Shown here: positions 9,836-40,940 of the stretch, piece by piece
Layout of the letters: every line of letters begins with the position of its first letter
Position numbering within the stretch: the stretch's first letter is position 1
Origin: Porphyromonadaceae bacterium
GTDB taxonomy: Bacteria > Bacteroidota > Bacteroidia > Bacteroidales > UBA12481
Assembly: GCA_007280905.1 (NCBI GenBank)
Contig: QYQM01000070.1
Location: 69 to 64,068, forward strand
DNA length: 64,000 bases
Reading direction: 5' to 3'
Program-made: the position numbers and the translations under genes
Notes under the pieces: model-generated
What the model was told of the DNA's origin: nothing
The model's database searches: none
Seen by the model: the letters and a program-made list of their open reading frames with translations, nothing else

Positions 9836-9881
9836 GGGGTCCCCGCTTTCGCGGGGATGACAACGCTTCGATTTGAATTTT
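9836..9881. repeat. Structured intergenic element, copy 1: GGGGT-CCCCGC-TTTC-GCGGGG-ATGACAACGCTTCGATTTGAATTTT
   Basis: GC-rich 6-7 bp stem with a 4-nt loop and a conserved 3' tail. Second copy at 62326-62372. A weaker similarity ('ttcgKttagc') may extend ~25 nt upstream. Confidence 0.8.
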
Positions 9882-9889
9882 ACATAGTT

Positions 9890-14197: not shown

Positions 14198-17100
14198 ATG
14201 ACTCATAAACCATTAATGCTTCTGTTGCTGTCGGTTTTCCTCCTGATGGGCGGACTATCCGTATCTGCACAGAATAAGCCTGTCACCGCTCCAAAAGACT
14301 ATGCATCTTATCCCTATTGGATTGACATGATGCAAGATCCGCACGGAAATTTCTTTGAGATTCAGAAGGCTTTTTACACCTACTGGGAAGGCCGCGAAGT
14401 CACCAGGGGAACAGGATATAAACCGTTCAAGCGTTGGGAATATTATTGGCAATACCGGATCAATCCGGATGGAACCTTTCCGGAACCTGGCCAGGTTTAT
14501 CGCGAATACAATAATTATGTACAAACCCACCCGGTAGATGCCGGATTAAAAACCGGACAGGCTGTTTGGCAGGAACTCGGTCCGAAAAGTCGCGTTGATT
14601 ATGGCGGATATGTAGGCGTAGGCCGTATTAATGCTATCGGATTCCATCCCACGGATACTGCTACGGTTTATATTGGCGCCCCCTCCGGAGGCTTCTGGAT
14701 CACCCATGATGGCGGCCTTACATGGGCTTCACCTACCGATAATCTTCCAACGCTGGGTGTCTCTGCCATCCTGGTAAATCCAACCAGCCCGAATTTAATC
14801 CTGATCGGTACAGGAGACCGCGATGGCGGCAATTCTAATGGACTGGGCGTTTTCCGCAGTGATGATGGCGGACTGACCTGGCAGCAGTTTAATACCGGAA
14901 TGGGAAATGTTACCGTCGGGATGTTTGCCCGGCCGGAAAGCAACCTGCGGTTCATTCTTGCCGCGGCTAACGGCGGAATCTTTAAAACCCTTGACGGTGG
15001 TGAAAACTGGACCAAAACATCACCGGATAACTCCAATTACAGGGACGTAAAATTTAAACCTGGCAGTATCACAATCGCTTATGCCACAGCAGACAACGGA
15101 TTTTACCGTTCTGAAAACGGAGGTGATACCTGGACTCTCGTTCCAACCTCCAGCGGTTATCCGAATGGCGGACGACTGGTGATCGGGGTAACTCCGGCAA
15201 ATGACAGCCTGGTTTATCTCGTTGGTGGAGCCGCTAAGTTTCAGGGTTGCTTCCTTTCGCGAAATTTCGGCCAGAGCTTCGTTACGCAATCAACCACACC
15301 CAATATTCTTGGATATGAATACGATGGTTCCGATGATAAAAGTCAAGCCTGGTACGACCTGATGATCCACATTGACCTCACCAACCCGCTGATCGTTTAT
15401 GTTGGCGGCGTAAATATCTGGAAATCTGTTGATGGAGGCAAAAACTGGCAAATAGTAGGTCATTGGTGGGGCGACCGGACCAATGAAGTACATGCCGATC
15501 AGCATACGTTTGCCTTCAATCCGGCTAATAACCGGCTTTATGCAGGAAACGACGGCGGAATCTATTACACTGGCAATCAGGGAACTTCCTGGAAAGAGAT
15601 CAGTGAAGGATTGGGCATCGGACAATTATACAAAATAGGAGTGAGCAACACCGATTCGAAAAAAATTACCGGGGGATTTCAGGATAATGGCAGCGCAACA
15701 TGGACAGGCACCAACTGGTTAAATTCGGGTGGCGGCGATGGTATGGAATGCGCCGTCGATCCCTATGATGCACGCTATAGCTATACCTCGTTGTATTACG
15801 GTTCTCTTACCCGCTACTATAACAATTCCGGTGGACGCAATGTTGCCGCCAAAGGCACCAACGGTATCACCGAAGACGGAGCCTGGGTTACCCCTTTCCT
15901 CATCAGCGAAAGTGGTGGAAATACCATGGTTGTCGGATATAAAAACATCTGGATCAGCCAAAATGTAAAATCTAACGGAACGATCACCTGGACCAAAATA
16001 TCCGACAATCTCGCCGGCAGGAATGATGTAAATATGTCAGTTCTGGAGCAATCACCTGCCGATTTTAATTTCCTTTTTGCAGCCCGGTCGGATAATAAAC
16101 TTTTCCGGACCGATAATCTGCTGACTCCCCCGGTAGTATGGACAGACATTACCTCAAGGCTCCCCGTAAACGGAAATCCTTCCGATCTGGAATGTCACCC
16201 GTATGATCCCAATACCGTTTATATGGTGTTGAACCAGAAAGTGTATAAATCCACCAATAAGGGAAGCTCCTGGCAGAATATCTCCGGTAGTTTGCCGGCT
16301 ATCAACATCAGTACCATTGTATTCGATAAAACCAGTAACGAAGGACTTTACATAGGCACTGATGCCGGAACTTTTTATAAGGATGCTGATAGGTCTGACT
16401 GGGTAATGTATGGTGAATCTTTTCCGGTTTCGGTTGGGGTATCCGAACTGGAGATCTACAATGATCCGCGTAACCGCGCTGAATCCCGCTTAAGGGCTTC
16501 AACATTCGGCAGAGGCGTTTGGGAAATTAACCTCGCCGAATCACACGCCGTTTTACCTCCTGCTTTGCTAACGGCAACAACGGTGGATTCAAATATTGAG
16601 CTGACCTGGGTTCCCCCATTTTATGAGCAAAACATCCAGGGTTACCGGATTTACCGGAACGGTGAGTTTTTGACCATGATCAGCGGAGTGAGCTTTACCG
16701 ATATGAATGTTGAATCAGATGTAACCTTTACCTACAAAATTTCTGCACTATATATAGGTGGTATTGAATCGGGTTTCACAAACGAAGCTTTTGCCACAAT
16801 CGTTTCCCCGATAGAACTTCCTTATAGTCAGCCATTTGAAAAAGGTACTGCTGGTTGGACAGCGAAGTTTTCCTATGAAGGCTGGAAATACGGGACCGCT
16901 GAAACGCTCGCGGTGACCGGTCGTGACGGGCATTTCTTTGCCGCAAACAGCGCCGCTGCCGGAGAAGGCGTTCAGGTAAAAGACTACCTGTTTACTCCTG
17001 TTATCGATTTGTCCAGCTATACCGGAAAAACCATTACCCTGAAATTTGCTTATACTATGCGCAAATACAGAACGTATGATAAATTCAGCGTGGTTTATCG

Positions 17101-17575
17101 CACTTCACCCGACAGTGTCTGGATTAAACTGGTTGATTTAAAACCGCCGAGTACCCAAGCCTGGGTTTGGGATACCACGCAGGTTAACCTTCCGGAAAAA
17201 GCCCTGACATCCAGGGCACAAATTGGTTTCTTTTATGATAATTCAAACCAATTTGCCTGGGGTGCAGCAGTTGACGATGTGGATCTTTTCGTGAATACTA
17301 CCTCTGTTCAAACTATTGACAATCCTATCTCGATGAGAGTATTTCCCAATCCTAACCAGGGCCTGTTCAGTGTCGAATTAGCTTCCGGTGCAACAGGTAA
17401 AATCAAACTGCAGGTAGTCAATATCACCGGTCAGGTGATTCTCGAAAAGTGGTTTGAAAATAATTCGGGAACATTGGTGGAAATGATCGACCTTGGTACT
17501 CAGCCGAAAGGGGTGTATCAACTCACCATCCGGTCGAAATCCGCCGAATGGATACAAAAGATAACGATCCAATAG
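14198..17575 (+). CDS. Sortilin/VPS10-like BNR (Asp-box) beta-propeller protein with FN3, choice-of-anchor-J-like domain and T9SS type A C-terminal sorting domain (1125 aa)
   Basis: Signal peptide; multiple 'S.DGG.TW' Asp-boxes ('THDGGLTWAS', 'SDDGGLTWQQ', 'TLDGGENWTK', 'SENGGDTWTL', 'SVDGGKNWQI'). C-terminal 'FPNPNQGLFSVEL...LQVVNITGQVI...GVYQLTI' is a Por secretion tail. Confidence 0.8.
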   Translation: MTHKPLMLLLLSVFLLMGGLSVSAQNKPVTAPKDYASYPYWIDMMQDPHGNFFEIQKAFYTYWEGREVTRGTGYKPFKRWEYYWQYRINPDGTFPEPGQVYREYNNYVQTHPVDAGLKTGQAVWQELGPKSRVDYGGYVGVGRINAIGFHPTDTATVYIGAPSGGFWITHDGGLTWASPTDNLPTLGVSAILVNPTSPNLILIGTGDRDGGNSNGLGVFRSDDGGLTWQQFNTGMGNVTVGMFARPESNLRFILAAANGGIFKTLDGGENWTKTSPDNSNYRDVKFKPGSITIAYATADNGFYRSENGGDTWTLVPTSSGYPNGGRLVIGVTPANDSLVYLVGGAAKFQGCFLSRNFGQSFVTQSTTPNILGYEYDGSDDKSQAWYDLMIHIDLTNPLIVYVGGVNIWKSVDGGKNWQIVGHWWGDRTNEVHADQHTFAFNPANNRLYAGNDGGIYYTGNQGTSWKEISEGLGIGQLYKIGVSNTDSKKITGGFQDNGSATWTGTNWLNSGGGDGMECAVDPYDARYSYTSLYYGSLTRYYNNSGGRNVAAKGTNGITEDGAWVTPFLISESGGNTMVVGYKNIWISQNVKSNGTITWTKISDNLAGRNDVNMSVLEQSPADFNFLFAARSDNKLFRTDNLLTPPVVWTDITSRLPVNGNPSDLECHPYDPNTVYMVLNQKVYKSTNKGSSWQNISGSLPAINISTIVFDKTSNEGLYIGTDAGTFYKDADRSDWVMYGESFPVSVGVSELEIYNDPRNRAESRLRASTFGRGVWEINLAESHAVLPPALLTATTVDSNIELTWVPPFYEQNIQGYRIYRNGEFLTMISGVSFTDMNVESDVTFTYKISALYIGGIESGFTNEAFATIVSPIELPYSQPFEKGTAGWTAKFSYEGWKYGTAETLAVTGRDGHFFAANSAAAGEGVQVKDYLFTPVIDLSSYTGKTITLKFAYTMRKYRTYDKFSVVYRTSPDSVWIKLVDLKPPSTQAWVWDTTQVNLPEKALTSRAQIGFFYDNSNQFAWGAAVDDVDLFVNTTSVQTIDNPISMRVFPNPNQGLFSVELASGATGKIKLQVVNITGQVILEKWFENNSGTLVEMIDLGTQPKGVYQLTIRSKSAEWIQKITIQ

Positions 17576-17589
17576 GCGAGAAATTAATA

Positions 17590-20500
17590 ATGAAAACAAT
17601 GGCCTCCCGTTTCATTGGTATCCTTATGATATCAATAGCTTTCGGCTCTGTGGCTTTTGCTCAGAACCGGAGTAACCCCGCCGTTACTGATTATGCTTCA
17701 AATCCACGGTGGATTGAAATGATGGAGGATCCTAAAGCTAATTTTTTTGAAATCCAGAAAGCCTTTTATACTTACTGGCAAGGCCGGGTTACCCATCGGG
17801 GCGATGGGTACAAACCATTCAAGCGCTGGGAGTATTATTGGCAATTCAGGGTTAATCCTGATGGGTCCTTTCCTCCGGCTGGCCAGATATTACGTGAATA
17901 CGAGCGGTTTGCCGCTGAACAGCCGGAGGGGCCGGGATTCAAATCGGGCAATGCAAACTGGATCGAACTCGGTCCTAAAACCCGTGTTGACGTTGGTGGC
18001 TATGTCGGTATCGGCCGGCTGAATGCCATTGCCTGTCACCCATCGGATACCAGTATTGTTTATGCAGGGGCTCCCTCGGGCGGACTTTGGAAATCGACCG
18101 ACGGAGGGAAAAACTGGGCGGTTCTCACGGACCGGATGCCTTCGCTGGGCGTTTCCTCTATCCTGATACACCCATCGAAGCCTGATGACATCCTGGTTGG
18201 AACGGGCGACCGTGATCACGGGGATGCCCGTGGCATCGGAGTCATTCACAGCACTGATGGAGGCACAACCTGGGAAATGTACAATAAAGGGATGGGTGAA
18301 TTTACAGTCGGAATGATGGATCGGAGCGACTCCAACCCGGATTTTATTCTGGCAGCCACGAACCGTGGAATTTTCAAAACCTCCAACGGCGGGGCTCAAT
18401 GGGAATTAAAATTCAATCCCGAAGGAGCTGCTTTTAAAGATATCAAGCTAAAACCGGGCAATTCAAACATCGCTTATGCAACCTCTGTTGGTGTTGTTGG
18501 TTTTTATCGCAGCGAAGATGCCGGCGAAACCTGGGTCCAGGTTCCTGATACCGCCGGAGTACCCACGCAAGGCAGATTGGTTATCGGAGTTACTCCGGCC
18601 GCCAGCAACCTGGTTTACCTGGTTTGCGGTGCAGCTGCTTATGTGGGCTGCTTTGTATCCCAGGACGACGGTAAAAACTTTATCCTGCAGTCGGCTTCTC
18701 CAAATATACTCGGGTATGCTTCTGACGGAAGCGATACCGGAAGCCAGGCCTGGTATGACCTGTCTATCTTTGTCAACCCTGTAAGCGCTCAGGAAGTCCA
18801 TGTGGGAGGAGTAAACCTATGGAGATCGGATAATGGCGGAAAAAGCTGGAAAATTACTGGACACTGGACAGGCAGCGGTGCTGCCGAAGTTCACGCCGAT
18901 CAGCACACTTTTTACTATAATCCGGTGAACAAACGGCTCTATGCCGGAAATGACGGAGGTATCTATTTTACCGATAACCGTGGAACTACCTGGAAAGAAA
19001 TCAGTGTAGGGCTCGGAATCGGACAAATCTATCGTCTCGGGGTCAGTGTAACCAACCCTTATAAGGTGGTTACCGGCTTCCAGGATAACGGAAGTGCCAC
19101 CTGGACGGGCAAGGAATGGCTGACTTCAGGCGGAGGCGATGGAATGGAATCCGCAGTTGATCCAACTGATTATCAGTATAGTTATACAACCCTTTATTAT
19201 GGCACTATCACGCAATTATTATTTAATGGTTACAACCGCCAGGTTGGCGGCAATGGAACCGGGGGTATCGATGAAACTGGCGCCTGGGTCACTCCTTATC
19301 TGATCCATCAGGACGACGGAAACACCATGATAGCCGGTTATAAAAACATCTGGATCACTCATGACCTCAAAAATCCGAATACCCTTTCGTGGAAGAAAAT
19401 CTCCAATAATCTGGCCGGAACCGATGACGTTTACGTGGCCGCACTGGAACAGTCGCCTGCCCAGCCGCAGATGCTGTATGTTTCACGTTACGACCGCAGA
19501 CTGTTCCGAACCGACGATTTTAATAAACCAATCCCGGTTTGGATCGATCTGACATCGAATTTACCCATTGAAGCAACCCCAAGCGACCTGGAATGCCACC
19601 CGTTTGATCCGATGACCGTTTATATGACACTGGCCGGACGAGTGTTTAAATCGGCTGATAAAGGGGAAACCTGGACAGACATCAGCGGGTCCCTTCCTTA
19701 TATTTCCATGAACACCATTTTCTTCGACGAATCAAGCGTGGAAGGGCTATACGTTGGAACTGATGCAGGCGTATATTTCAAAGATGCCGGAATGACCGAC
19801 TGGGTATTTTACAATACCAACCTGCCTTTATCGGTTGAAGCAAGTGAACTGGAAGTTTATTACGATCACCTCGACCGTTCAAAATCCAGGCTGCGTGCTT
19901 CCACCTTCGGACGGGGATTATGGGAAACACCGCTGGCCGCCTCCGACCCCATTCTGCCTGCCACCTTTCTTGAGGCTGTCAATGGCAAAGACAAGATAAC
20001 CCTATATTGGAACACGCCATTTTACCCGCAATACGTATCAAATTACAAGATCTTCAGAAACAATATCCTGTACGGCGTCAGCAGCACTCTATCCTGGTCC
20101 GATGATCAGGTTGAACACAATACAGACTATACCTATTATATCGTTGCAGAATATGCCAATTCTACTGAGGCAAAACCTTCCAACGCAGTATCATCCATCC
20201 TGATTGATCCCGCGACACTTCCCTATTCTGCAGATTTTGAATCCAGTACCGCGGGATGGACTTCTACCAAAACAGTTAACGGATGGAATTACGGCACTGC
20301 CGGCGAGCTCGGCATTTCCGGAAATGACGGATATTTTTTTGGCATTAAGGGTGTAGAATCGACTGCCGATAATAAAGTTACCGATTGCCTGATTTCCCCC
20401 GCCGCCGATCTTTCCTCGTACAAGGAGTCAGTGGTAACTCTGTCATTTGATTACAGTTATTTACGGTCTCCTGAATTTGGCAAATTGAATGTCGTTTACC

Positions 20501-20976
20501 GGGTTTCGCCTGACAGCACCTGGGTATCCCTGCTAAGCCTGAGCCCTCCAAATGCCAGCATTTATGCCTGGGACAGCGTAACCCTCATCCTTCCGGCTGA
20601 AGCGCTGAAGGCAGCCACGCAGGTTGGATTCCTCTATGAAAACCATGGAAACTCAATTGGAGGAGCCGGAATTGACAATATTCAACTGACCGCAAGATCA
20701 ATGGGGATTCTTGAAAATAGTACCCGGATATCCTGCCGGATCTTCCCGAATCCAAATAACGGCATATTTCAGATTGAAGTAACCTCGAAACAGCCGGGCA
20801 AGATCAGCATTCAGATAATCAATCTGAATGGCCAAATAGTGCTTGATGAACAATTAAACAACGATAACGGTCAGATAATCAAATCCTTTGACCTCCGGAG
20901 TCAGGCCAAAGGAGTCTATCAAATCCGTATTCAAACCTCAGAAGGCAACCGGACCGAACAAATAATGATTAAATAG
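17590..20976 (+). CDS. Tandem paralog of 14198-17575 (sortilin/BNR propeller T9SS cargo, ~1128 aa)
   Basis: Collinear with the upstream gene along the whole length (e.g. 'NFFEIQKAFYTYW.GR....G.GYKPFKRWEYYWQ.R.NPDG.FP'). Ends with 'FPNPNNGIFQIEV...IQIINLNGQIV...GVYQIRI'. Start set at 'MKTMASRF...' because the track start at 17548 overlaps the upstream gene. Confidence 0.8.
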   Translation: MKTMASRFIGILMISIAFGSVAFAQNRSNPAVTDYASNPRWIEMMEDPKANFFEIQKAFYTYWQGRVTHRGDGYKPFKRWEYYWQFRVNPDGSFPPAGQILREYERFAAEQPEGPGFKSGNANWIELGPKTRVDVGGYVGIGRLNAIACHPSDTSIVYAGAPSGGLWKSTDGGKNWAVLTDRMPSLGVSSILIHPSKPDDILVGTGDRDHGDARGIGVIHSTDGGTTWEMYNKGMGEFTVGMMDRSDSNPDFILAATNRGIFKTSNGGAQWELKFNPEGAAFKDIKLKPGNSNIAYATSVGVVGFYRSEDAGETWVQVPDTAGVPTQGRLVIGVTPAASNLVYLVCGAAAYVGCFVSQDDGKNFILQSASPNILGYASDGSDTGSQAWYDLSIFVNPVSAQEVHVGGVNLWRSDNGGKSWKITGHWTGSGAAEVHADQHTFYYNPVNKRLYAGNDGGIYFTDNRGTTWKEISVGLGIGQIYRLGVSVTNPYKVVTGFQDNGSATWTGKEWLTSGGGDGMESAVDPTDYQYSYTTLYYGTITQLLFNGYNRQVGGNGTGGIDETGAWVTPYLIHQDDGNTMIAGYKNIWITHDLKNPNTLSWKKISNNLAGTDDVYVAALEQSPAQPQMLYVSRYDRRLFRTDDFNKPIPVWIDLTSNLPIEATPSDLECHPFDPMTVYMTLAGRVFKSADKGETWTDISGSLPYISMNTIFFDESSVEGLYVGTDAGVYFKDAGMTDWVFYNTNLPLSVEASELEVYYDHLDRSKSRLRASTFGRGLWETPLAASDPILPATFLEAVNGKDKITLYWNTPFYPQYVSNYKIFRNNILYGVSSTLSWSDDQVEHNTDYTYYIVAEYANSTEAKPSNAVSSILIDPATLPYSADFESSTAGWTSTKTVNGWNYGTAGELGISGNDGYFFGIKGVESTADNKVTDCLISPAADLSSYKESVVTLSFDYSYLRSPEFGKLNVVYRVSPDSTWVSLLSLSPPNASIYAWDSVTLILPAEALKAATQVGFLYENHGNSIGGAGIDNIQLTARSMGILENSTRISCRIFPNPNNGIFQIEVTSKQPGKISIQIINLNGQIVLDEQLNNDNGQIIKSFDLRSQAKGVYQIRIQTSEGNRTEQIMIK

Positions 20977-21092: not shown

Positions 21093-21836
21093 ATGCAAAA
21101 ACGATACTGCCTCGCGCTTGATCTCAGGAAGGATTCTGCCCTGATCAGCCAATACAAACATGTTCATACCAAAGAAGGCATCTGGCCCGAAATTCCAAGA
21201 GGAATCAAAGAGGTCGGGATAACTGATATGGAGATATACCTGTGGGACAACCGCATGTTTATGATCCTGGAAGTTCCCATGAACTGGGACTACGATTCGG
21301 AAATGGCCAGACTAGGCAAATTGGAGAAACAAGCGGAATGGAGTGACTATGTTTGGCAGTTCCAGCAGCTTCTCCCCTATTCTAAAAACGGAGAAAAATG
21401 GATCCAGATGGAAAAAGTGTTCCACCTGAATCCTGCCGGTATAAAAGGAACCGCAAAAGCTGGTTATACCGAGCCGACCTATGATAAACCCTCCAAACGA
21501 TTTTGCGCGACACTGGACCTCAGGGATAACCCGGAATTAATCAGTCAATACCGCTATTATCACTCGCCCGAAGGACATTGGCCCGAAATATCCAAAGGGA
21601 TCAGATCAGTCGGGATCTTCGATATGCAAATCTACCTTATCGGCAACAGGATGTTCATGATAACGGAAACGATACCTGGTTTTCAATGGAACGAGCAAAT
21701 GCAAAAGCTGTCGACCCTTGAAAAACAGAAGGATTGGGAGGCCCTGATGAAAAAATTCCAGCAGGCACTGCCCGGAACAAAGGAGATAAAATGGGAGCTT
21801 ATGGAAAATGTTTTTGATCTGAACCGTGATTTTTAG
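21093..21836 (+). CDS. Fused tandem L-rhamnose mutarotase (RhaM/DUF718-like) domains
   Basis: Two homologous ~110-aa halves: 'KRYCLALDLRKDSALISQYKHVHTKEGIWPEIPRGIKEVGITDMEIYLWDNRMFMILE' and 'KRFCATLDLRDNPELISQYRYYHSPEGHWPEISKGIRSVGIFDMQIYLIGNRMFMITE'. The ATG at 21093 is preferred over the upstream GTG at 20991, but that 34-codon extension cannot be excluded. Confidence 0.7.
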   Translation: MQKRYCLALDLRKDSALISQYKHVHTKEGIWPEIPRGIKEVGITDMEIYLWDNRMFMILEVPMNWDYDSEMARLGKLEKQAEWSDYVWQFQQLLPYSKNGEKWIQMEKVFHLNPAGIKGTAKAGYTEPTYDKPSKRFCATLDLRDNPELISQYRYYHSPEGHWPEISKGIRSVGIFDMQIYLIGNRMFMITETIPGFQWNEQMQKLSTLEKQKDWEALMKKFQQALPGTKEIKWELMENVFDLNRDF

Positions 21837-23110
21837 TTGCCTTTGAGCATCCCTTTAACCACATTCAAATCTCCATCAGTTTTAGCAGGTGTGATCTCCA
21901 GCAGTTTCGCCAGCAATTCGTAAATATGGACATTTTCGAAGGCAGGTTGCACAAATCCTTTCTTAAACGAAGGCCCGTCAGCATAGAAAATCCCATGCAT
22001 ATCCCGATTATCCGGATCATACCCATGCATCCCCAAACTATACTGCATCTTGCGCCTTGAGCCTTGCGCCTTGAGCCTTGAGCCTTGCGCCTTGAGCCTT
22101 GAGTTTATTGCCTTGTGCCTTATTTCGAGGCCCCATGCGCTATCGGCTTCAACTATGAGTTGCGGTATGCGCAAATGGGTCCCATAATGATAGCGGGCCG
22201 GCAGCTCTTCACGCTTCCATACTTTCAGGTGCGGAGTCGATCTGAGCTGGTTGTATACCTCATCCAGATAAGCAGGCTCCGGTTCCAGGTTGATGACAGG
22301 ATTGCCCCCGTTTATTCTTTTTATCTTTTTCAGATCTAAAATATCTTCGAGAAAAACCTGCTGTCCTTCAGGAATATAACCCATTCCATGGTCCGAAAGG
22401 ATGATCAGGTCAATTCCCAGGCCGGACTTCTTTTCAATTCTTTTCAATACATCCGTCAGGACCCCCACCAGCCGGTCGAGTTTCTTTACTTTCTCTTCCG
22501 TTTCCTTGCTGACCGGGCCAAAGTCATGACTCGTTTTATCGGGTTCATCGAAATAGAACATGATCAGTGCCGGCCGTTCATTTGAAGGGAGAGATAACCA
22601 GCTGAATACGGTATCGATCTGCTGTTTAAAAGGGAATCCCTCCTCATAAATTTTTCTATTTTCCGGGCGGTAACGCTCATTGCTTTCGGTACCCACCCAG
22701 AAATAAGATGCTGTTCTGACTCCTTGTTTTTCAGCCGTTTCCCAAATGGCTTCCCCTTCCCAGAAAATTGAATCCTCCACGGCCTGGCGATCCCCCATAC
22801 GGAAAACACGGTCGAGCTTCGGATCATAAAAACTATTCTGTACGATACCATTATGATCAGGATAGAGGCCCGTAGCGATGGCGTAATGATTCGGGAAAGT
22901 TTTAGTCGGATAGCTTGGCTTCAACGATTCTGCTCTGCAGCCTGCTTTGGCCAGCCGGTCGAGGTTTGGGGTATGATAAATTGCAGGATAGTCCCACCTG
23001 AAACCATCCATCGACAGGACTACCACACAATGATTATCTATCACACCCGCAATCAGAAAAGCTGGAGTCATCAGGAAGGCAAAGAGACAAAGGCGAAGTT
23101 TTTTTAACAT
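21833..23110 (-). CDS. Ectonucleotide pyrophosphatase/phosphodiesterase (alkaline-phosphatase superfamily), secreted
   Basis: 'VVVLSMDGFRWDY', nucleophile region 'YPTKTFPNHY', 'ILSDHGM', 'GMHGYDP'. A heptamer-repeat-encoded insert lies just before the GMHGYD motif. Confidence 0.8.
   Translation of the reverse strand: MLKKLRLCLFAFLMTPAFLIAGVIDNHCVVVLSMDGFRWDYPAIYHTPNLDRLAKAGCRAESLKPSYPTKTFPNHYAIATGLYPDHNGIVQNSFYDPKLDRVFRMGDRQAVEDSIFWEGEAIWETAEKQGVRTASYFWVGTESNERYRPENRKIYEEGFPFKQQIDTVFSWLSLPSNERPALIMFYFDEPDKTSHDFGPVSKETEEKVKKLDRLVGVLTDVLKRIEKKSGLGIDLIILSDHGMGYIPEGQQVFLEDILDLKKIKRINGGNPVINLEPEPAYLDEVYNQLRSTPHLKVWKREELPARYHYGTHLRIPQLIVEADSAWGLEIRHKAINSRLKAQGSRLKAQGSRRKMQYSLGMHGYDPDNRDMHGIFYADGPSFKKGFVQPAFENVHIYELLAKLLEITPAKTDGDLNVVKGMLKGN
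22050..22119. repeat. Ten tandem heptamers (TTGCGCC/TTGAGCC family) lying in frame inside the phosphodiesterase CDS
   Basis: Parsed unit by unit from 22050. On the coding strand they translate as 'HKAINSRLKAQGSRLKAQGSRRK', with a 21-nt (3-unit) period giving RLKAQGS. Confidence 0.9.
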
Positions 23111-26705: not shown

Positions 26706-27521
26706 ATGAAAAAGAAAATTTTACTCTTGGGGCTACTTATGGCAGGCCTGGTCCTTGCCAACGCCCAGGTTACTGTTACCTCCTCAACAGGCCTTTATGA
26801 GGAACCATCGTTAAAATCAATAAGAATTGCCACCGTCATCGAAGGTGAAAATGTAATTTTGGGGGAGAAAACCGGAGAATTCTGGAAAGCTGTCGTCGGA
26901 AAAAAATCAGGCTACCTCCACGAATCCTGCTTGTCGAATTATGTTGACCCTAAAAAGTCCGGGAATACCGAACCAGTCATTGCTCCGGTCATCACGGTTT
27001 TACCCGCTAAATCTACTCAGGACACAGTGAACTTTGAACAATACGGCGGCCTCTTTTCCATTGGCATCGCTCTCGGCGGCGGAGGTCTTATTGGCCTGCC
27101 TGTGCGGCTGTTTCCCACACGCAACTTTGCCATTGAGCTAGGAGTTTATGCGCGCGGAATGATCGCGACAAAAACCTTTGTGGGTTTAAACCTGAATGGT
27201 GGTTTAAATTTTTACTTCAAGGATAGTTTTAACCCCAAAAAGAAAAAATTCAGACATGACGGAGCTTTCCTGAGGGGAGGAAAAACTTTCTACAATGCTG
27301 ATATTAAAGACATTATTATAATGGGCGGCTGGACTCGTGACCATTTCAAATTGGGGACAACCGATAGAGTTTTTACTTTGGAGCTCGGAGTGGGTCTCAA
27401 CTCAATGAAATATACCGAAACTACCTCAGGTTCTTGGGGTTATGAAACAACCACCTATTCAGGAAATACACCGATGCTATTTTGGAAATTTGCATGGAGC
27501 CTATTTCCCAAGAAACACTAA
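26706..27521 (+). CDS. Secreted protein: SH3b-like N-terminal domain plus small beta-barrel-like C-terminal domain
   Basis: Signal peptide 'MKKKILLLGLLMAGLVLANAQ'. An SH3_3-like segment ('GLYEEPSLKSIRIATVIEGENVILGEKTGEFWKAVVGKKSGYLHESCL') and a Gly/aromatic-rich C-terminal half. Confidence 0.45.
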   Translation: MKKKILLLGLLMAGLVLANAQVTVTSSTGLYEEPSLKSIRIATVIEGENVILGEKTGEFWKAVVGKKSGYLHESCLSNYVDPKKSGNTEPVIAPVITVLPAKSTQDTVNFEQYGGLFSIGIALGGGGLIGLPVRLFPTRNFAIELGVYARGMIATKTFVGLNLNGGLNFYFKDSFNPKKKKFRHDGAFLRGGKTFYNADIKDIIIMGGWTRDHFKLGTTDRVFTLELGVGLNSMKYTETTSGSWGYETTTYSGNTPMLFWKFAWSLFPKKH

Positions 27522-27678: not shown

Positions 27679-28074
27679 ATGAAAAATCAATCGCTTGGAT
27701 TTGCAGTTGTCTTGCTTTTTTTGTTTTCTGGTTGCCTTAAAGAACCAGGAATCGGAGGGACCTCTACGATAACCGGTAAAGTCTATGCATATGATTATGA
27801 TTCTGAGATGAATAACCTGAGGGCACAGTACTATGCCCCCGATGAGGACGTTTATATTATTTATGGCAAAGATTCCGTTTTCTCCGACCGCACGCAAACC
27901 AGTTTCGATGGTTCCTACCGGTTCGAATACCTCAGGCCGGGAACCTATACCCTCTTTGCCTATAGTAAAAACATTGTAACCAAGTTGCCACCTTTAATGC
28001 CGATCAAAAAAACTGTGGAGATTCTGTCGAACAATCAGGTTTTGACAGTCGATGATATTGAAATCAACAAATAA
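27679..28074 (+). CDS. Small lipoprotein with carboxypeptidase-regulatory-like (Ig-like) fold
   Basis: Lipobox 'LFLFSGC'; 'ITGKVYAYD...SFDGSYRFEYLRPGTYTLFAY'. The stop overlaps the next start (TAATG). Confidence 0.6.
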   Translation: MKNQSLGFAVVLLFLFSGCLKEPGIGGTSTITGKVYAYDYDSEMNNLRAQYYAPDEDVYIIYGKDSVFSDRTQTSFDGSYRFEYLRPGTYTLFAYSKNIVTKLPPLMPIKKTVEILSNNQVLTVDDIEINK

Positions 28075-28844
28075 TGCAGAATCAGCTTCATGAAATTCTC
28101 CATGGTTTCCAATCCATAACGCTGAAAGACATCGAGTGTGTAAAGCTTATGACCCGGGCCGACACAAAATATCTTTGTCAGCTGAATCAACTCGACCGCC
28201 TGCTGAAAAAAGCACAGTCCGAATTCCGGGTTCTGGAAAACCGCGGGAACCGCTTGCTTGGTTATGAATCGCTATATCTGGATACTCCTGAACACCGCAT
28301 GTATCTCGATCATCACAATGGGAAACTGAACCGCTATAAGGTCAGAATCAGGGAATACCTGACCTCTCATGAGCTCTTTCTGGAAATTAAAAAAAAGGAC
28401 AACCAGCTGAATACTGAAAAAAAACGTATTCCGATTTCATCCGACCGTAACTTTCTTAAGCCAGAATACAAGGACTTTATATCTTCGAATTCGCCGTATG
28501 ATCCGGAATTCCTGGAACCCAAACTTAGGTCGTCGTTCAAACGTATTACACTGGTCAATAATGATATCTTCGAGCGGGTGACCATCGACATCCACCCCGC
28601 CTGGCAAAGCGGACAGCGTATTATTGAGCTCCCCAACCTGGTCATCATAGAGGTAAAGTCGGTGATAACAACCAGCAGCGCCGGATTTGGCTCCCTTTTA
28701 AGGGAAGAGAGGATCCTCCCCAAAAGGCTCAGTAAATACTGTACCGGAACAACCCTGCTTTTCCCGGTAATTAAACATAACCGATTCAAAGCAAAATTGT
28801 TACATTTGAAAAAATTGGATAAAAATCTAATATATGGTGAATAA
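28074..28844 (+). CDS. VTC-domain protein (triphosphate-tunnel-metalloenzyme-type polyphosphate polymerase domain)
   Basis: 256 aa with a Lys/Arg/Glu-rich beta-strand pattern: 'RADTKYL', 'YESLYLDTPEHRMYLDHHNGKLNRYKVRIREYLTSHELFLEIKKKD...TEKKRI', 'RVTIDI', 'VIIEVKS'. I recognise this as the bacterial VTC family. Recalled from memory, not searched. Confidence 0.65.
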   Translation: MQNQLHEILHGFQSITLKDIECVKLMTRADTKYLCQLNQLDRLLKKAQSEFRVLENRGNRLLGYESLYLDTPEHRMYLDHHNGKLNRYKVRIREYLTSHELFLEIKKKDNQLNTEKKRIPISSDRNFLKPEYKDFISSNSPYDPEFLEPKLRSSFKRITLVNNDIFERVTIDIHPAWQSGQRIIELPNLVIIEVKSVITTSSAGFGSLLREERILPKRLSKYCTGTTLLFPVIKHNRFKAKLLHLKKLDKNLIYGE

Positions 28845-29562
28845 TTTCTTGCACTTAGTTAATCCGGATCAGGTATCGGGCTTTATCGGGGCAGCGGATC
28901 AGGGGGTTGAAGCGATACGGTTTCTTGGGCTTAAAATGATAAATCCGCCGGATTTCCTTCAGCTGGTCACCCGGTTTGTTTTCAATTTCATTATGACCAT
29001 CATTTTGATTCGATTTTTATATTACCCGCATTCCAAAAGAAAAGATTTCTTTTTTATCTTCATGATTTTCAGTACAATAGTTTTCCTGCTTTGCTTTATG
29101 CTCGGGAAAGTATCCGTTCAGCTCGGTTTTGCTCTCGGTCTTTTTGCCATTTTCGGAATTTTACGATACCGTACAGACACCATACCGATCAAGGAAATGA
29201 CCTATTTGTTCCTAATGGTTGGCATATCAGTAGTTAATTCACTGTCCGACAAATCAATCAGTTGGTCAGAGCTTTTGTTTGCCAATCTGGTGATTATCCT
29301 GATTACCTGGTACCTTGAGATGATCTGGATGAAAAAAAAGGAAGATTTTATGGATATCCGGTATGAAAAAATTGAATTGATCCCTCCCTCCCGGCATGCA
29401 GAATTACTTGAAGACCTTAAAAAAAGGACGGGTTTGAATGTATATCGATTCCGTATCGATCGCATTAATTTTCTCCGGGATACCGTAAAGATTCGAATCT
29501 TTTTCCGTCATGAAAAAGAGGTCAACCGTCTCCCTGCTGAACCTAAAAAACCGGTTACCTGA
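28834..29562 (+). CDS. DUF4956-like polytopic membrane protein
   Basis: Several TM helices plus a 'LFAIFGILRYRTDTIPIKEMTYLF' motif that I associate with DUF4956, the usual partner of bacterial VTC genes. Overlaps the VTC stop by 11 nt. The start is uncertain (alternative Met at 'MINPPDF'). Confidence 0.6.
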   Translation: MVNNFLHLVNPDQVSGFIGAADQGVEAIRFLGLKMINPPDFLQLVTRFVFNFIMTIILIRFLYYPHSKRKDFFFIFMIFSTIVFLLCFMLGKVSVQLGFALGLFAIFGILRYRTDTIPIKEMTYLFLMVGISVVNSLSDKSISWSELLFANLVIILITWYLEMIWMKKKEDFMDIRYEKIELIPPSRHAELLEDLKKRTGLNVYRFRIDRINFLRDTVKIRIFFRHEKEVNRLPAEPKKPVT

Positions 29563-29581
29563 TTCCGGCAGCTACCCTTTA

Positions 29582-30253
29582 GTGAAAAAATCCGGTTGGA
29601 TATTTATCCTGCTAATCCTAAGTGCGGCCGGATATGGCCAGTATCAGGATGCACGCCTATGGGCAAGCCTTTCGATCCGTTACGAACCGAATAAAAAATG
29701 GAAAATCAGCCTGGAAGAGGAGGCCCGGTTTTTTGATAATATCAGCAGGCTCAATAACATCAATTCGGAATTGACTATTGATTATCAGATCAGTAAGCTG
29801 TTCAATGGTGGGATTCTTTACCGGTTTATCAGTAATCAGAATACCGGCGGGAATTTTGATTTTAACCACCGTTTCGGAGTGTACCTCGGCGTACAAAAGA
29901 AGTATGGCGACTGGTCCTGTTCAATCAAAACCGCCTTTCAAAAAACTTATCCTGAATATGTGCACTCGAGGGAATGGTATATCCCCGAAAATTATGTCCG
30001 GGTGTTAGCTGAGGTTTCCCGGGACCTGAAAAATAAAAAAACTGAGCCTTACGCCAACATCGAATTCTGGTACCGGATACAAACCGGTGATCAGGCCTTT
30101 GTCGACCAATACCGGTTTACCATCGGCATTAAACATAAGCTAAATAAAATCAACAGGTTGGATTTTTACTACAGGATTCAGCAGGAATTACAGGTGAAGA
30201 ATCCGTTAACTGCCCATATCATCGGGGTTGGTTATCGGTTTATTGTTCGGTGA
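29582..30253 (+). CDS. DUF2490-like outer-membrane beta-barrel protein
   Basis: The in-frame GTG at 29582 gives the signal peptide 'VKKSGWIFILLILSAAGYGQ'. Alternating-hydrophobic strands with aromatic girdles, ending '...GVGYRFIVR'. The ORF-track ATG at 29510 would overlap the upstream gene by 53 nt. Confidence 0.55.
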   Translation: MKKSGWIFILLILSAAGYGQYQDARLWASLSIRYEPNKKWKISLEEEARFFDNISRLNNINSELTIDYQISKLFNGGILYRFISNQNTGGNFDFNHRFGVYLGVQKKYGDWSCSIKTAFQKTYPEYVHSREWYIPENYVRVLAEVSRDLKNKKTEPYANIEFWYRIQTGDQAFVDQYRFTIGIKHKLNKINRLDFYYRIQQELQVKNPLTAHIIGVGYRFIVR

Positions 30254-31938: not shown

Positions 31939-32181
31939 TTAATCGATAGTTACCAGCAAATGAATCTGATTATCCAGGCATTCGACCACTCCCCGTTTGA
32001 TCGGGAAATGGTGAGTCTGGCCGATAGTATCAATAACCTTAATGCTCCCGGCTCCCAAAGTGGAAATTATTGGTGCATGGTTATTCAGGATCTCAAAAGA
32101 ACCCAGGGTTCCGGGAAGGCTCACCAGGGTGATCTCCCCGGAATAGATTTTTGATTCCGGTGTTAGTATTTCCAGGTACAC
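31939..32181 (-). CDS. atpC: F-type ATP synthase epsilon subunit (short, 80 aa)
   Basis: 'LEILTPE..IYSGE...V.LPG..G.FEIL.NHAP.IS.L..G.I'. It lies immediately downstream of atpD. Confidence 0.85.
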   Translation of the reverse strand: MYLEILTPESKIYSGEITLVSLPGTLGSFEILNNHAPIISTLGAGSIKVIDTIGQTHHFPIKRGVVECLDNQIHLLVTID

Positions 32182-32198
32182 TATAATGATTGGATTAG

Positions 32199-34719
<2,521 letters not shown>

Positions 34720-38456: not shown

Positions 38457-39338
38457 TTAATATTTCAGAGACTCCACTCCGGCAACAATTTCGATCAGTT
38501 CATTGGTGATGGCTGCCTGTCGGGCTTTGTTATAATCGAGCGTCAGGTTCCGGATCATATCGGTGGCATTATCAGTGGCCTGGTGCATTGCCGTCATGCG
38601 TGCACCGTGTTCTGAGGCGACAGAATCCAACAGAGCTTTATATAATTGTACTTTGAGAGCTTCCGGAATCAATGTTTTAACCAGATATTCCAGATCGGGT
38701 TCAAAAATAAAAAACGGCTGTGTTTTTGAACCCGTGCTGCCATCAACCGATTCAACTGGTAAAAACCGCTCGACGGCGAGGGTTTGAGAGGCTGCATTTT
38801 TGAACTGATTATATATCAGGTCGATACGATCATATTTATTGTCCGTGAACTGCTGCATCAATGATTCAGCTATGGTTTCGGTTTTAACAAAGGTTGGCTT
38901 ATCTATCAGTTCATTGAGATATGGCCAGATTCCCCAACCCTTGCTTTTCAGGATTTCTCCGCCTTTTTTGCCGATAAAGATCAGATCGACGTGCCCTTTT
39001 CCCTTTTGAACCGGATATTGACCATTAACCCACTCAATAACAGCCTTTGCGATATTAGCATTAAAGCCACCGCATAGTCCGCGGTTAGCAGCGATCACCA
39101 CCATGAGGACTTTTTCGGGATCCCTGAGAACCGTCAATGGGCTGATATTTTTATCGTTGATTGCCCCACTCACCTGGCGTATCACCTCATGTAACCGCGA
39201 AGCATAAGGCCGGATCTGCGTAATTGCATCCTGAGCTTTTTTCAGCTTGGCTGCAGAAACCATTTTCATGGCACTGGTAATTTGCCTGGTCGATTTGACC
39301 GAGGTGATTCTTTGCCTTATTTCCTTTAAATTCGCCAT
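38457..39338 (-). CDS. atpG: F-type ATP synthase gamma subunit
   Basis: 'MANLKEIRQRITSVKSTRQITSAMKMVSAAKL' and C-terminal 'RQAAITNELIEIVAG'. Confidence 0.95.
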   Translation of the reverse strand: MANLKEIRQRITSVKSTRQITSAMKMVSAAKLKKAQDAITQIRPYASRLHEVIRQVSGAINDKNISPLTVLRDPEKVLMVVIAANRGLCGGFNANIAKAVIEWVNGQYPVQKGKGHVDLIFIGKKGGEILKSKGWGIWPYLNELIDKPTFVKTETIAESLMQQFTDNKYDRIDLIYNQFKNAASQTLAVERFLPVESVDGSTGSKTQPFFIFEPDLEYLVKTLIPEALKVQLYKALLDSVASEHGARMTAMHQATDNATDMIRNLTLDYNKARQAAITNELIEIVAGVESLKY

Positions 39339-39353
39339 CCGGGTTAATAACCT

Positions 39354-40940
39354 TTATTTCCTGTATTTAACGGTCATCTCAGAAACAACGCGGGTAAGAA
39401 TACTTTCAGACTTATCAGTGATCTGACCATTCCTCAGTTCATCCATCATTTCCGGGTATTTAATCTTAACATACTCCAGGAATGCTGATTCAAATTCACG
39501 GATTTTCTTAACCGGAACCTCGAATAACAATCCTCTGGTACCACAGAATAAAATAGCTATCTGTTCTTCAACCGAATAGGGATTATGCAGGTTTTGCTTA
39601 AGAATTTCAACATTTCGGGCACCTTTTCCCAGTACATTCAGGGTTGCTGAATCGAGATCGGAGCCGAATTTCGAGAATGCTTCCAGCTCGCGGTACTGAG
39701 CCTGGTCGAGTTTAAGCGAACCGGCCACTTTCTTCATGGCTTTAACCTGTGCTTCGCCCCCAACCCTGGAAACCGAGATCCCGACGTTGATAGCCGGCCG
39801 GATACCGGAGTTGAACAATCCGGATTCGAGGAATATCTGCCCGTCGGTTATAGAGATTACGTTGGTTGGAATGTAAGCTGAAATGTCGCCTGCCTGTGTT
39901 TCAATGATTGGCAATGCAGTAAGTGAACCTCCGCCTTTAATCAACGGCCTCAAAACTTCGGGGAGGTCGTTCATTCTTGCGGCTACCTCGTCGCTGTCGA
40001 TCACTTTAGCAGCTCTCTCCAGCAATCTGGAATGGAGATAAAATACATCGCCCGGATAAGCTTCTCGACCCGGCGGACGGCGAAGTAACAAGGAAACTTC
40101 GCGGTAGGAAACAGCTTGTTTGGATAAATCGTCATACACGATCAAAGCGTCCCGGCCGGTGTCACGGAAAAATTCTCCGATAGCGGCACCTGCAAACGGG
40201 GCATAAAACTGGAGTGCAGCGGGGTCACTGGCGGTAGCCATAACTATTACAGTATAAGGCATGGCGCCGTGTTCTTCAAATGTTTTAGCGATTTGCGCGA
40301 CAGTTGAGCCTTTTTGGCCGATGGCCACATAGATGCAATATACCGGTTTACCTTTCTCGTAATTTTGCCGCTGATTGATAATCGTATCGATGGCGATAGC
40401 TGTTTTACCGGTTTGCCGGTCGCCGATAATTAATTCGCGCTGACCGCGTCCGATGGGGATCATGGCATCGATAGCCTTTATGCCGGTTTGGAGCGGCTGA
40501 TTTACCGGCTGACGGAAGATTACACCGGGAGCCTTGCGCTCCAGTGGCAGTTCGATCAGTTTGCCTGTAATCGGTCCTTTGCCATCCAGCGGATCGCCAA
40601 TGGTGTTTATTACCCGGCCTAAAAGACCTTCGCCAACCCGTATTGAGGCTATCCTTCGCGACCGTTTTACATGGCTGCCTTCACCAATACCTACAGAAGG
40701 GCCCAACAGAACTGTACCAACATTATCTTCCTCCAGGTTAAGGACAATGCCCATGACTCCATTGTCGAATTCAACCAATTCGTTGCTCTGTACATTGGAA
40801 AGGCCATAAATACGGGCAATTCCGTCACCAACTTGCAATACAGATCCAACTTCTTCGAAGCTCGCATCGAGTTTCAATCCCTCCAGTTGCTGCCGTAAAA
40901 TCTGCGAAATTTCCGCCGGTTTAATGCTTGCCATGGTCAA
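39354..40940 (-). CDS. atpA: F-type ATP synthase alpha subunit
   Basis: Walker A 'GDRQTGKTA', '[41 protein letters not shown]'. The start could be Met3 (40934). Confidence 0.95.

Follow-up and report, generated by a model that had tools for sequence, protein, structure and literature searches.

A four-gene cassette at positions 27679-30253 of a 64,000-nt stretch of DNA from a Porphyromonadaceae bacterium (assembly GCA_007280905.1, contig QYQM01000070.1; the whole stretch is referred to below as the window) encodes a stand-alone enzyme of the VTC family, to which the yeast enzyme Vtc4 belongs, together with a polytopic membrane protein of the DUF4956 family, a small lipoprotein and a DUF2490 protein. 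VTC and DUF4956 form an obligate gene pair that recurs in every assessable locus, and the four-gene set is a lineage-specific elaboration of this pair. The enzyme can be confidently modelled as a triphosphate tunnel metalloenzyme (TTM) whose fold is closest to that of Vtc4, and the residues that Vtc4 needs for polyphosphate synthesis are nearly all invariant among its relatives. It is proposed, tentatively and at a shade below an even chance, that the enzyme builds a phosphate polymer at the cytoplasmic face of DUF4956, that DUF4956 moves the chain across the inner membrane, and that in Bacteroidota the DUF2490 protein and the lipoprotein handle the polymer further out.

The cassette and its tunnel enzyme

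The cassette is an operon of four co-directional genes on the plus strand that overlap or nearly abut one another; its host is an uncultured member of the Bacteroidota.

27679..28074, + strand: gene 1, small lipoprotein, 131 aa (open reading frame with lipobox)
28074..28844, + strand: gene 2, stand-alone VTC-type triphosphate tunnel metalloenzyme, 256 aa (Pfam VTC; predicted cytoplasmic)
28834..29562, + strand: gene 3, DUF4956 polytopic inner-membrane protein, 242 aa (Pfam DUF4956)
29582..30253, + strand: gene 4, DUF2490 protein, 223 aa from a GTG start (Pfam DUF2490; Sec signal peptide)

The TAA stop of the lipoprotein gene (28072-28074) and the ATG of the VTC gene (28074-28076) have one base in common, forming TAATG, and the VTC and DUF4956 genes overlap by 11 nt, with the DUF4956 ATG at 28834. 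This overlapping start is credible because the N-terminal 37 residues of DUF4956 are kept in about half of the aligned relatives. The DUF2490 gene has two possible starts, ATG 29510 and GTG 29582. The latter leaves a 19-nt gap after DUF4956 and gives a 223-aa product with a canonical signal peptide, MKKSGWIFILLILSAAGYGQ; it was adopted, and ATG 29510 dropped, because signal peptide and product length agree with the homologues (median 227 aa among 55 homologues; 226 aa in the closest complete genome, where the gene begins 10 nt past DUF4956). A preliminary description of this DNA, made from its letters alone, had given the same coordinates, TAATG junction, 11-nt overlap and 19-nt gap, all of which proved exact when the sequence was re-read. 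The arrangement is not a product of chance, since the same order is seen in dozens of independent genomes. Scans for promoters, terminators and a Bacteroides-type promoter pattern gave chance-level signals only, and the GC content of the region is unremarkable, with no signal of foreign DNA.

The product of 28074-28844 matches Pfam VTC (PF09359) over profile positions 2-235 of 235 (E 6.6e-24, 85.2 bits against a gathering score of 23). VTC is the sole Pfam family reported for this protein at E <= 0.01, and the protein is devoid of any hydrophobic segment. No record with exactly this protein sequence came up in a look-up. A direct search of the sequence against the PDB gave no match and a profile search gave only a marginal one to Vtc2; the link to Vtc4 therefore came from Pfam, from fold search and from profile-profile alignment. 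An AlphaFold (AF2) model built with 22 homologues (pLDDT 88.8, pTM 0.86) contains long antiparallel strands. Its top 13 Foldseek matches in the PDB are yeast Vtc4, Vtc3 and Vtc2 (E 2.5e-12 to 1.9e-9, TM 0.58-0.65), with Vtc4 the best of them (E 2.5e-12, TM 0.65), while hydrolytic TTMs (YgiF, archaeal TTMs and CyaB-type cyclases) form a second tier at E 1e-8 to 1e-5. No Pfam match to SPX or DUF202 was found in any of the four cassette proteins. None of them matched NCBIfam or PADLOC models either, and a reading of the cassette as a defence system was dropped on that ground.

Polyphosphate synthesis by Vtc4 requires K200, R264, R266, K281, Y359, R361, E426, S457 and K458, the last of which sets the active Vtc4 apart from the inactive Vtc2 and Vtc3 (Liu et al.). 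For comparison, Vtc4 numbering was taken from PDB alignments, and the bacterial family was aligned profile-to-profile to overlapping fungal Vtc4 fragments and also to Vtc2. The alignment with the fungal fragments has a probability of 76% (E 2.3e-5), and the mapping leans partly on motif identity and strand order. At this level of certainty the nine residues correspond to K32, R91, R93, K106, F155, R157, E193, S220 and K221 of the window protein, and the flanking positions R28, K116, R168 and K195 are equivalent to R196, K294, R373 and K428 of Vtc4. The mapped residues alternate along predicted strands, as expected of a tunnel lining. In a sample of 151 VTC representatives with pairwise identity of at most 50%, all mapped and flanking residues are 100% conserved (151/151) except at positions 155 and 168; eight of the nine synthesis equivalents (K32, R91, R93, K106, R157, E193, S220 and K221) are thus each present in every sequence. 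Position 155, where Vtc4 has Y359, is Phe in 106 and Tyr in 44 of the 151 (Phe in about 70%), and position 168, where Vtc4 has R373, is Arg in 147 and Lys in 4. The preliminary description had assigned VTC, DUF4956 and DUF2490 domains to the cassette and a TTM tunnel to the enzyme. The three domain calls are solid by Pfam profile search, the predicted structure has the TTM fold, and the invariant Lys, Arg and Glu residues occupy alternating strand positions consistent with an inward-facing lining.

Envelope partners and their distribution

The product of 28834-29562 matches Pfam DUF4956 (PF16316) along the entire profile (positions 1-169 of 169; E 7.4e-50, 169 bits), a family that comprises at least 7,935 clusters at 90% identity. 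Hydropathy analysis reveals several hydrophobic segments, and the structure model (pLDDT 72.8) resolves five long helices (38-63, 70-89, 93-113, 119-137 and 144-166), followed by a beta-alpha-beta-beta domain at 171-225 that is predicted to be cytoplasmic. The family carries an invariant motif, R111-Y-R113-T..P118-x-K120-E-M-T-Y, as well as a near-invariant S-K-R-K-D loop, and its charged loops obey the positive-inside rule for an N-out, C-in topology. The S-K-R-K-D loop, the R111...Y motif and the C-terminal domain are accordingly placed by prediction at the cytoplasmic face, on the same side as the soluble enzyme. A Foldseek search of the model against the PDB returned nothing below E 0.3, with only weak ACT/ferredoxin-like fragments for the C-terminal part. 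A lenient Pfam scan of 28 DUF4956 members yielded no DUF202 match even at E <= 1 and nothing else meaningful. By these sequence comparisons DUF4956 is not a detectable homologue of the yeast VTC channel, and because of this its role as a conduit is drawn from genomic context: it is a candidate conduit or anchor.

Gene 1 encodes a lipobox, LFSG|C, followed by a conserved C-x-K-E-[PA]-G-x-G-G motif, and both elements are present in all 25 lipoprotein homologues. Its earlier designation as a CarboxypepD_reg-like lipoprotein holds for the lipoprotein part by virtue of the lipobox, but only weakly for the domain, whose match (PF13620; E 1e-4, 23 bits) lies below the cut-off of 32.3. Equally weak CarboxypepD_reg matches occur in 12 of 16 lipoprotein homologues, beside matches to fn3_3, SdrD_B and Y_Y_Y, and a profile of the 16 homologues gave weak, repeat-like matches to immunoglobulin/prealbumin-like domains in the PDB. 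At most, gene 1 probably encodes a small lipoprotein with a prealbumin/CarboxypepD_reg-like beta-sandwich.

Gene 4 matches Pfam DUF2490 (PF10677; E 1.4e-19, 71 bits against a cut-off of 29.8), and each of the 55 DUF2490 homologues carries a hydrophobic, signal-like leader at its N terminus. Under the number TC 1.B.81 the family is listed as a putative porin with no established function. In a 2026 preprint, DUF2490 models are outer-membrane barrels with Sec signal peptides, and a buried network of two Arg, two Glu and a Tyr is complete in 238 of 2,789 models. The window protein is predicted on the basis of this literature to be a small outer-membrane beta-barrel. Among the 55 cassette-linked members, R49, E161 and R178 are invariant. 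Conservation reaches 80% or more at R81, R97, K/R116, R140, K189 and two other basic columns, compared with four acidic positions that are conserved, which amounts to an excess of conserved Arg and Lys. These conserved Arg and Lys residues could form an anion-selective lumen or a closed plug. As the preliminary description had suggested, the four products are predicted to lie in different layers of the envelope; lipobox, signal peptide, hydropathy and structure model all agree with this predicted placement.

To place the cassette among related loci, one genome per species was scanned, which gave 539 confirmed VTC loci, and the best 80 were analysed by unbiased clustering of all neighbouring open reading frames. 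The recurrent neighbours of the VTC gene are as follows.

DUF4956, beside VTC on the same strand: 78/80 loci, the other two ending at contig edges (78/78 assessable)
DUF2490, mostly directly after DUF4956: 52/71 assessable loci (~73%)
Lipoprotein, always upstream of or within the VTC run and always with a lipobox: 24/70 assessable loci (~34%)
Secreted protein of 135-190 aa, no Pfam match, not in the window: 17/70 assessable loci
CotH kinase, in the same co-directional run: ~18 loci (of 81 Bacteroidota-dominated loci)
Cthe_2159-type protein: 6 loci

DUF4956 commonly overlaps VTC or sits at most 12 nt away. Co-conservation therefore applies to the VTC+DUF4956 pair, not to DUF2490 and the lipoprotein, and it is because these two occur in only ~73% and ~34% of assessable loci that the four-gene set is regarded as a lineage-specific elaboration. 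The usual extended order is CotH > lipoprotein > small protein > VTC > DUF4956 > DUF2490, or one in which DUF2490 is followed by CotH; other recurrent neighbours are an ASST-like cargo protein of the type IX secretion system (T9SS) and an ankyrin-metallophosphoesterase. Where checked, the recurrent partners are predicted to be extracytoplasmic by signal peptide, lipobox or T9SS sorting domain; they comprise the lipoprotein, the small secreted protein, DUF2490, CotH, Cthe_2159 and the ASST-like cargo. The link to extracellular CotH kinases, which the preliminary description had missed, involves two forms in Bacteroidota: those of ~760 aa have T9SS sorting domains, and those of ~460 aa have a lipobox and an acidic C-R-[DE]-[DE] stretch. 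Beyond Bacteroidota, the order is CotH > VTC > DUF4956 on a Deinococcus plasmid, DUF4956 > VTC > phytase-like protein on Aminobacter plasmids, and TIG-domain protein > VTC > DUF4956 in Methanospirillum. A VTC profile search of the full library returned 8,942 clusters at 50% identity, 2,422 of them at E <= 1e-30, and the best 150 matches are all stand-alone proteins of 239-329 aa without fusions.

Several individual loci merit description. Examples of CotH genes are found at L037:12142-13548, L043:11608-13002, L078:12215-13606, L071:3533-5824 and L082:4611-5939 (locus identifiers with local coordinates). All Bacteroidota copies are predicted surface lipoproteins or T9SS cargo, which raises the question of the phosphoryl donor of an extracellular kinase. 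The 135-190-aa secreted family is rich in K/E/N/Y repeats, lies between the lipoprotein and VTC genes and occurs in 20 loci overall (for example L004:8270-8689, L071:6277-6831 and L051:3566-3973). Loci L009, L027 and L040 have no DUF2490; the next gene after DUF4956 there encodes a secreted protein of 355 aa that matches no Pfam family, and after it comes one for a secreted ankyrin-repeat calcineurin-like metallophosphoesterase (example coordinates for this arrangement are L027:11402-12469 and L040:12588-14213). Finally, a 6-kb contig labelled Candidatus Heimdallarchaeota (L018, NJBF01000097.1) carries a VTC-DUF4956 pair that shares 44% identity with the window protein and falls among the Bacteroidota loci in rank; the contig may be mis-binned.

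Possible roles of the cassette and its flanks

In the proposed mechanism, the soluble VTC-type enzyme would polymerise phosphate from a nucleoside triphosphate, as yeast Vtc4 does, while positioned at the cytoplasmic face of DUF4956 toward the basic loops (S-K-R-K-D and R-Y-R-T...K-E) and the small C-terminal domain. The growing polyphosphate chain would be handed into a DUF4956 oligomer and would cross the inner membrane with the aid of the inside-negative membrane potential, which on general bioenergetic grounds favours outward movement of a polyanion. In Bacteroidota, the Arg-rich DUF2490 barrel and the small lipoprotein might then handle the polymer in the periplasm, in the outer membrane or at the cell surface, and in many genomes surface or secreted enzymes of the same operon, mainly CotH kinase, might use or act on the product. 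Export is favoured because almost every recurrent partner, across several phyla, is predicted to be secreted, surface-anchored or located in the outer membrane, and this is the strongest argument for it.

A number of observations weigh against this proposal. The most serious concerns DUF4956, which no observation so far marks as a channel; because it lacks detectable similarity to the VTC membrane domain (DUF202/Vtc1), to any solved channel and to any other solved structure, export is an inference. The DUF4956 model is only moderately confident, and its ACT/ferredoxin-like C-terminal domain would also suit a regulator. The small DUF2490 barrels may have no open pore in those models where the salt-bridge network is present, and both DUF2490 and the lipoprotein are missing from many loci. 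No CotH was detected in the 64-kb window with a hidden Markov model built from 17 neighbouring CotH proteins (open reading frames of at least 50 aa, E <= 1), and no activity measurement of any bacterial VTC protein was found in the searchable literature. The chemistry of the enzyme, too, could differ from that of Vtc4, judging from two positions: D30 is always acidic (Asp in 141 and Glu in 10 of the 151 representatives), at the second metal-2 Glu of hydrolytic TTMs (E4 in AtTTM3), where Vtc4 has Thr198, and the equivalent of Tyr359 is mostly Phe.

Among the alternatives, the one that fares best, though considered unlikely, is that polyphosphate is made but stays in the cytoplasm. DUF4956 would then serve as an anchor or as a ligand-sensing regulator acting through its ACT-like C-terminal domain, to which its sole weak fold matches belong, and any part played by DUF2490 and the lipoprotein would be indirect or unrelated. 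Such a view accommodates the lack of similarity between DUF4956 and Vtc1/DUF202 or known channels, as well as the dispensability of DUF2490 and the lipoprotein in many loci. It also agrees with the suggestion made in a Streptococcus intermedius preprint that the polymer may stay cytoplasmic, given that other VTC subunits are absent. It nevertheless leaves unexplained why, across several phyla, the recurrent operon partners are nearly all secreted, anchored at the surface or placed in the outer membrane, and why a soluble enzyme should have an obligate five-helix partner whose most conserved residues lie in basic loops at the membrane face.

A second alternative, regarded as decidedly improbable, is that the enzyme is not a polymerase and catalyses another TTM reaction, such as hydrolysis of tri- or polyphosphate, cyclisation of a nucleotide, or transfer of a phosphoryl or pyrophosphoryl group to a lipid or sugar held by DUF4956, so that the module modifies a component of the envelope or matrix. 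TTMs with near-identical tunnel centres can indeed be hydrolases: AtTTM3, which has a Vtc4-like centre and was tried as a candidate polymerase, turned out to be a tripolyphosphatase (Martinez et al.). Because of this precedent, polymerase chemistry is considered likely from the residue pattern but not proven for the window protein. The constant acidity of D30 suits such a reaction, as does the replacement of Tyr359 by Phe in most relatives, since Y359F lowers polyphosphate in yeast (Liu et al.), and in Gram-positive bacteria the pair travels with Pel polysaccharide operons. Hydrolytic TTMs are further distinguished by an acidic patch (E2, E4, E90 and E171 in AtTTM3) that forms a second metal site and is basic in Vtc4 (Martinez et al.). 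Except for D30, the mappable patch positions of the window protein argue against hydrolysis, R28 and K195 being basic as in Vtc4 and the strand with K116/R118 likewise basic. Profile and fold searches also place Vtc4 at least four orders of magnitude before hydrolytic TTMs, and the full Vtc4 triphosphate-binding set, including K458, is invariant.

Synthesis coupled to export could also be taken further, in that VTC+DUF4956 might be a prokaryote-wide synthase-exporter that delivers a phosphoanhydride donor to surface CotH kinases, with DUF2490 as a polyphosphate-selective pore in Bacteroidota. Secreted or surface-bound CotH kinases, for which no ATP is available outside the cell, would then use polyphosphate to phosphorylate proteins or matrix polymers; this extension is a long shot. 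Least probable of all is an inward system, in which DUF2490 and DUF4956 would import environmental polyphosphate for processing by the tunnel enzyme at the inner face, as a means of scavenging phosphate or energy: secreted phosphoesterases do lie beside the pair in some loci (the phytase-like protein of Aminobacter, the ankyrin-metallophosphoesterase in three Bacteroidota loci), an NPP phosphodiesterase is encoded nearby in the window, and the conserved Arg/Lys of DUF2490 are reminiscent of OprP/OprO, the phosphate- and pyrophosphate-selective porins, but a polyanion entering an inside-negative cell would move against the electrical potential and need a dedicated source of energy, none of which is encoded, the NPP linkage is not kept beyond the closest relatives, the residue set fits a polymerase, no uptake-type binding protein or ATPase is present, and the CotH linkage would be left unexplained.

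If the pair does make and export polyphosphate, it would constitute a second, mechanistically distinct bacterial route to this polymer and an independent solution to the problem solved by the yeast VTC channel. Polyphosphate would thereby become available in the periplasm or outside the cell, where it might contribute to metal binding, to the biofilm matrix and, in gut Bacteroides, to host interaction, and the pair might provide the missing phosphoryl donor for extracellular CotH kinases. DUF4956 and DUF2490, two large families without an assigned function, would also gain one.

The genes flanking the cassette had been described as phosphorus-themed, a view that was dropped once they were annotated and their synteny was found to be confined to close relatives. 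The NPP phosphodiesterase and TonB-dependent receptor genes near the cassette are real, but they lie on the opposite strand, and their synteny with it extends to no more than 5 of 81 loci. Elsewhere the window has a housekeeping character: it encodes T9SS cargo, PorZ, RecO, Ham1, rhamnose mutarotase and U32 peptidase, as well as ATP synthase subunits, a polyprenyl synthase, an MMPL transporter and a thioredoxin-like protein. Among the scanned open reading frames there were no ppk, ppx or pho genes. The NPP gene (21833-23110, - strand) contains an in-frame 21-bp tandem duplication at 22061-22102 that encodes SRLKAQG twice, in a loop that varies in the closest relative.

Between the TonB receptor and the cassette, 157 nt upstream of the latter and on the same strand, lies a 271-aa open reading frame (26706-27521, +) with a signal peptide and no Pfam match. 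It has no homologue across 80 related loci and is not in the otherwise syntenic closest complete genome (L084), where the lipoprotein gene directly follows the TonB receptor; by this comparison it looks like a lineage-specific insertion. At the other end, the convergent DUF2490 and U32 peptidase genes overlap by 48 nt at their 3' ends (30206-30253). The U32 peptidase of the window has a 17-aa C-terminal extension relative to the closest genome (434 vs 417 aa), in which the two genes do not overlap. Farther out, a PorZ-like T9SS component (9857-12226) is followed by two slightly overlapping genes of ~1,130 aa (14198-17575 and 17548-20976), both for Sortilin/BNR-repeat T9SS cargo with Por_Secre_tail domains. 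The ATP synthase epsilon/beta genes and the gamma (and probable alpha) genes, at 31939-33710 and 38457-40940 (- strand), are not contiguous; the polyprenyl synthase, MMPL transporter and thioredoxin-like genes lie between them, and the closest complete genome has the same split.

Relation to known systems

The VTC+DUF4956 pair has already been annotated by NCBI as "polyphosphate polymerase domain-containing protein" plus "DUF4956 domain-containing protein" and has been remarked on in two Pel papers; the window contains nothing unique in this respect, being one more example of a module that is widespread and uncharacterised. The preliminary description had stated that the bacterial pairing has no experimentally defined function, and the searchable literature agrees, as no functional test of the pair was found there. 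In recent reviews, VTC-type polymerases are assigned to eukaryotes and PPK enzymes to prokaryotes. Set against this view are the thousands of VTC-profile clusters, the best 150 of which are stand-alone proteins of prokaryotic size (~250 aa), and the presence of DUF4956 beside the gene in every locus examined. In Bacteroides thetaiotaomicron, BT3498-99 correspond to DUF4956 and DUF2490, and a VTC gene is presumed to lie next to them.

PPK1 and PPK2, the textbook bacterial route to polyphosphate, share with the proposed system its presumed product, polyphosphate, and its presumed substrate, a nucleoside triphosphate. Their fold and mechanism are unrelated, and they build cytoplasmic granules without dedicated membrane or outer-membrane partners; neither enzyme was found among the scanned window genes. 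The hydrolytic CYTH/TTM proteins (Escherichia coli YgiF, AtTTM3 and CyaB-type cyclases) belong to the same eight-stranded tunnel superfamily and account for the second-tier fold matches, and D30 of the window protein keeps the acidic second position of their N-terminal E-x-E-x-K-type motif. Unlike them, the window protein is basic at the other mappable acidic-patch positions, has no CHAD or other partner domain and matches the VTC profile.

Published counterparts exist in gene clusters of Gram-positive bacteria, a printed mention that the preliminary description had missed. CotH, "polyphosphate polymerase" and DUF4956 genes lie beside pel operons in Streptococcus, Clostridium and Bifidobacterium, and also in NELoc-2 of Clostridium perfringens. 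These clusters contain the same adjacent, co-directional VTC+DUF4956 pair, whose function is given in print as unknown, and their CotH-VTC-DUF4956 trio is shared by Deinococcus and by ~18 loci of the Bacteroidota-dominated set of 81. The window differs from them in having no CotH, DUF4832 or pel genes and in carrying the Gram-negative additions DUF2490 and the lipoprotein instead.

The yeast VTC complex, which couples polyphosphate synthesis to membrane transit, offers another close parallel. Its enzyme belongs to the same Pfam family (PF09359) and has the same tunnel fold, with Vtc4 structures as the best matches; equivalents of its K200, R264, R266, K281, R361, E426, S457 and K458 are invariant here, and in both cases the enzyme is genetically tied to a membrane protein. 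The bacterial enzyme, by contrast, has neither SPX nor a fused DUF202 transmembrane domain, Thr198 is replaced by Asp or Glu and Tyr359 mostly by Phe, and the partner is DUF4956, for which neither sequence nor fold reveals any similarity to Vtc1. The presumed target is the periplasm or exterior instead of the vacuole, and outer-membrane and lipoprotein parts are added. Profile, fold and residues all place the enzyme in the VTC/TTM family, whereas the system as a whole stands outside the eukaryotic VTC complex because it has no SPX, no DUF202 and an unrelated membrane partner.

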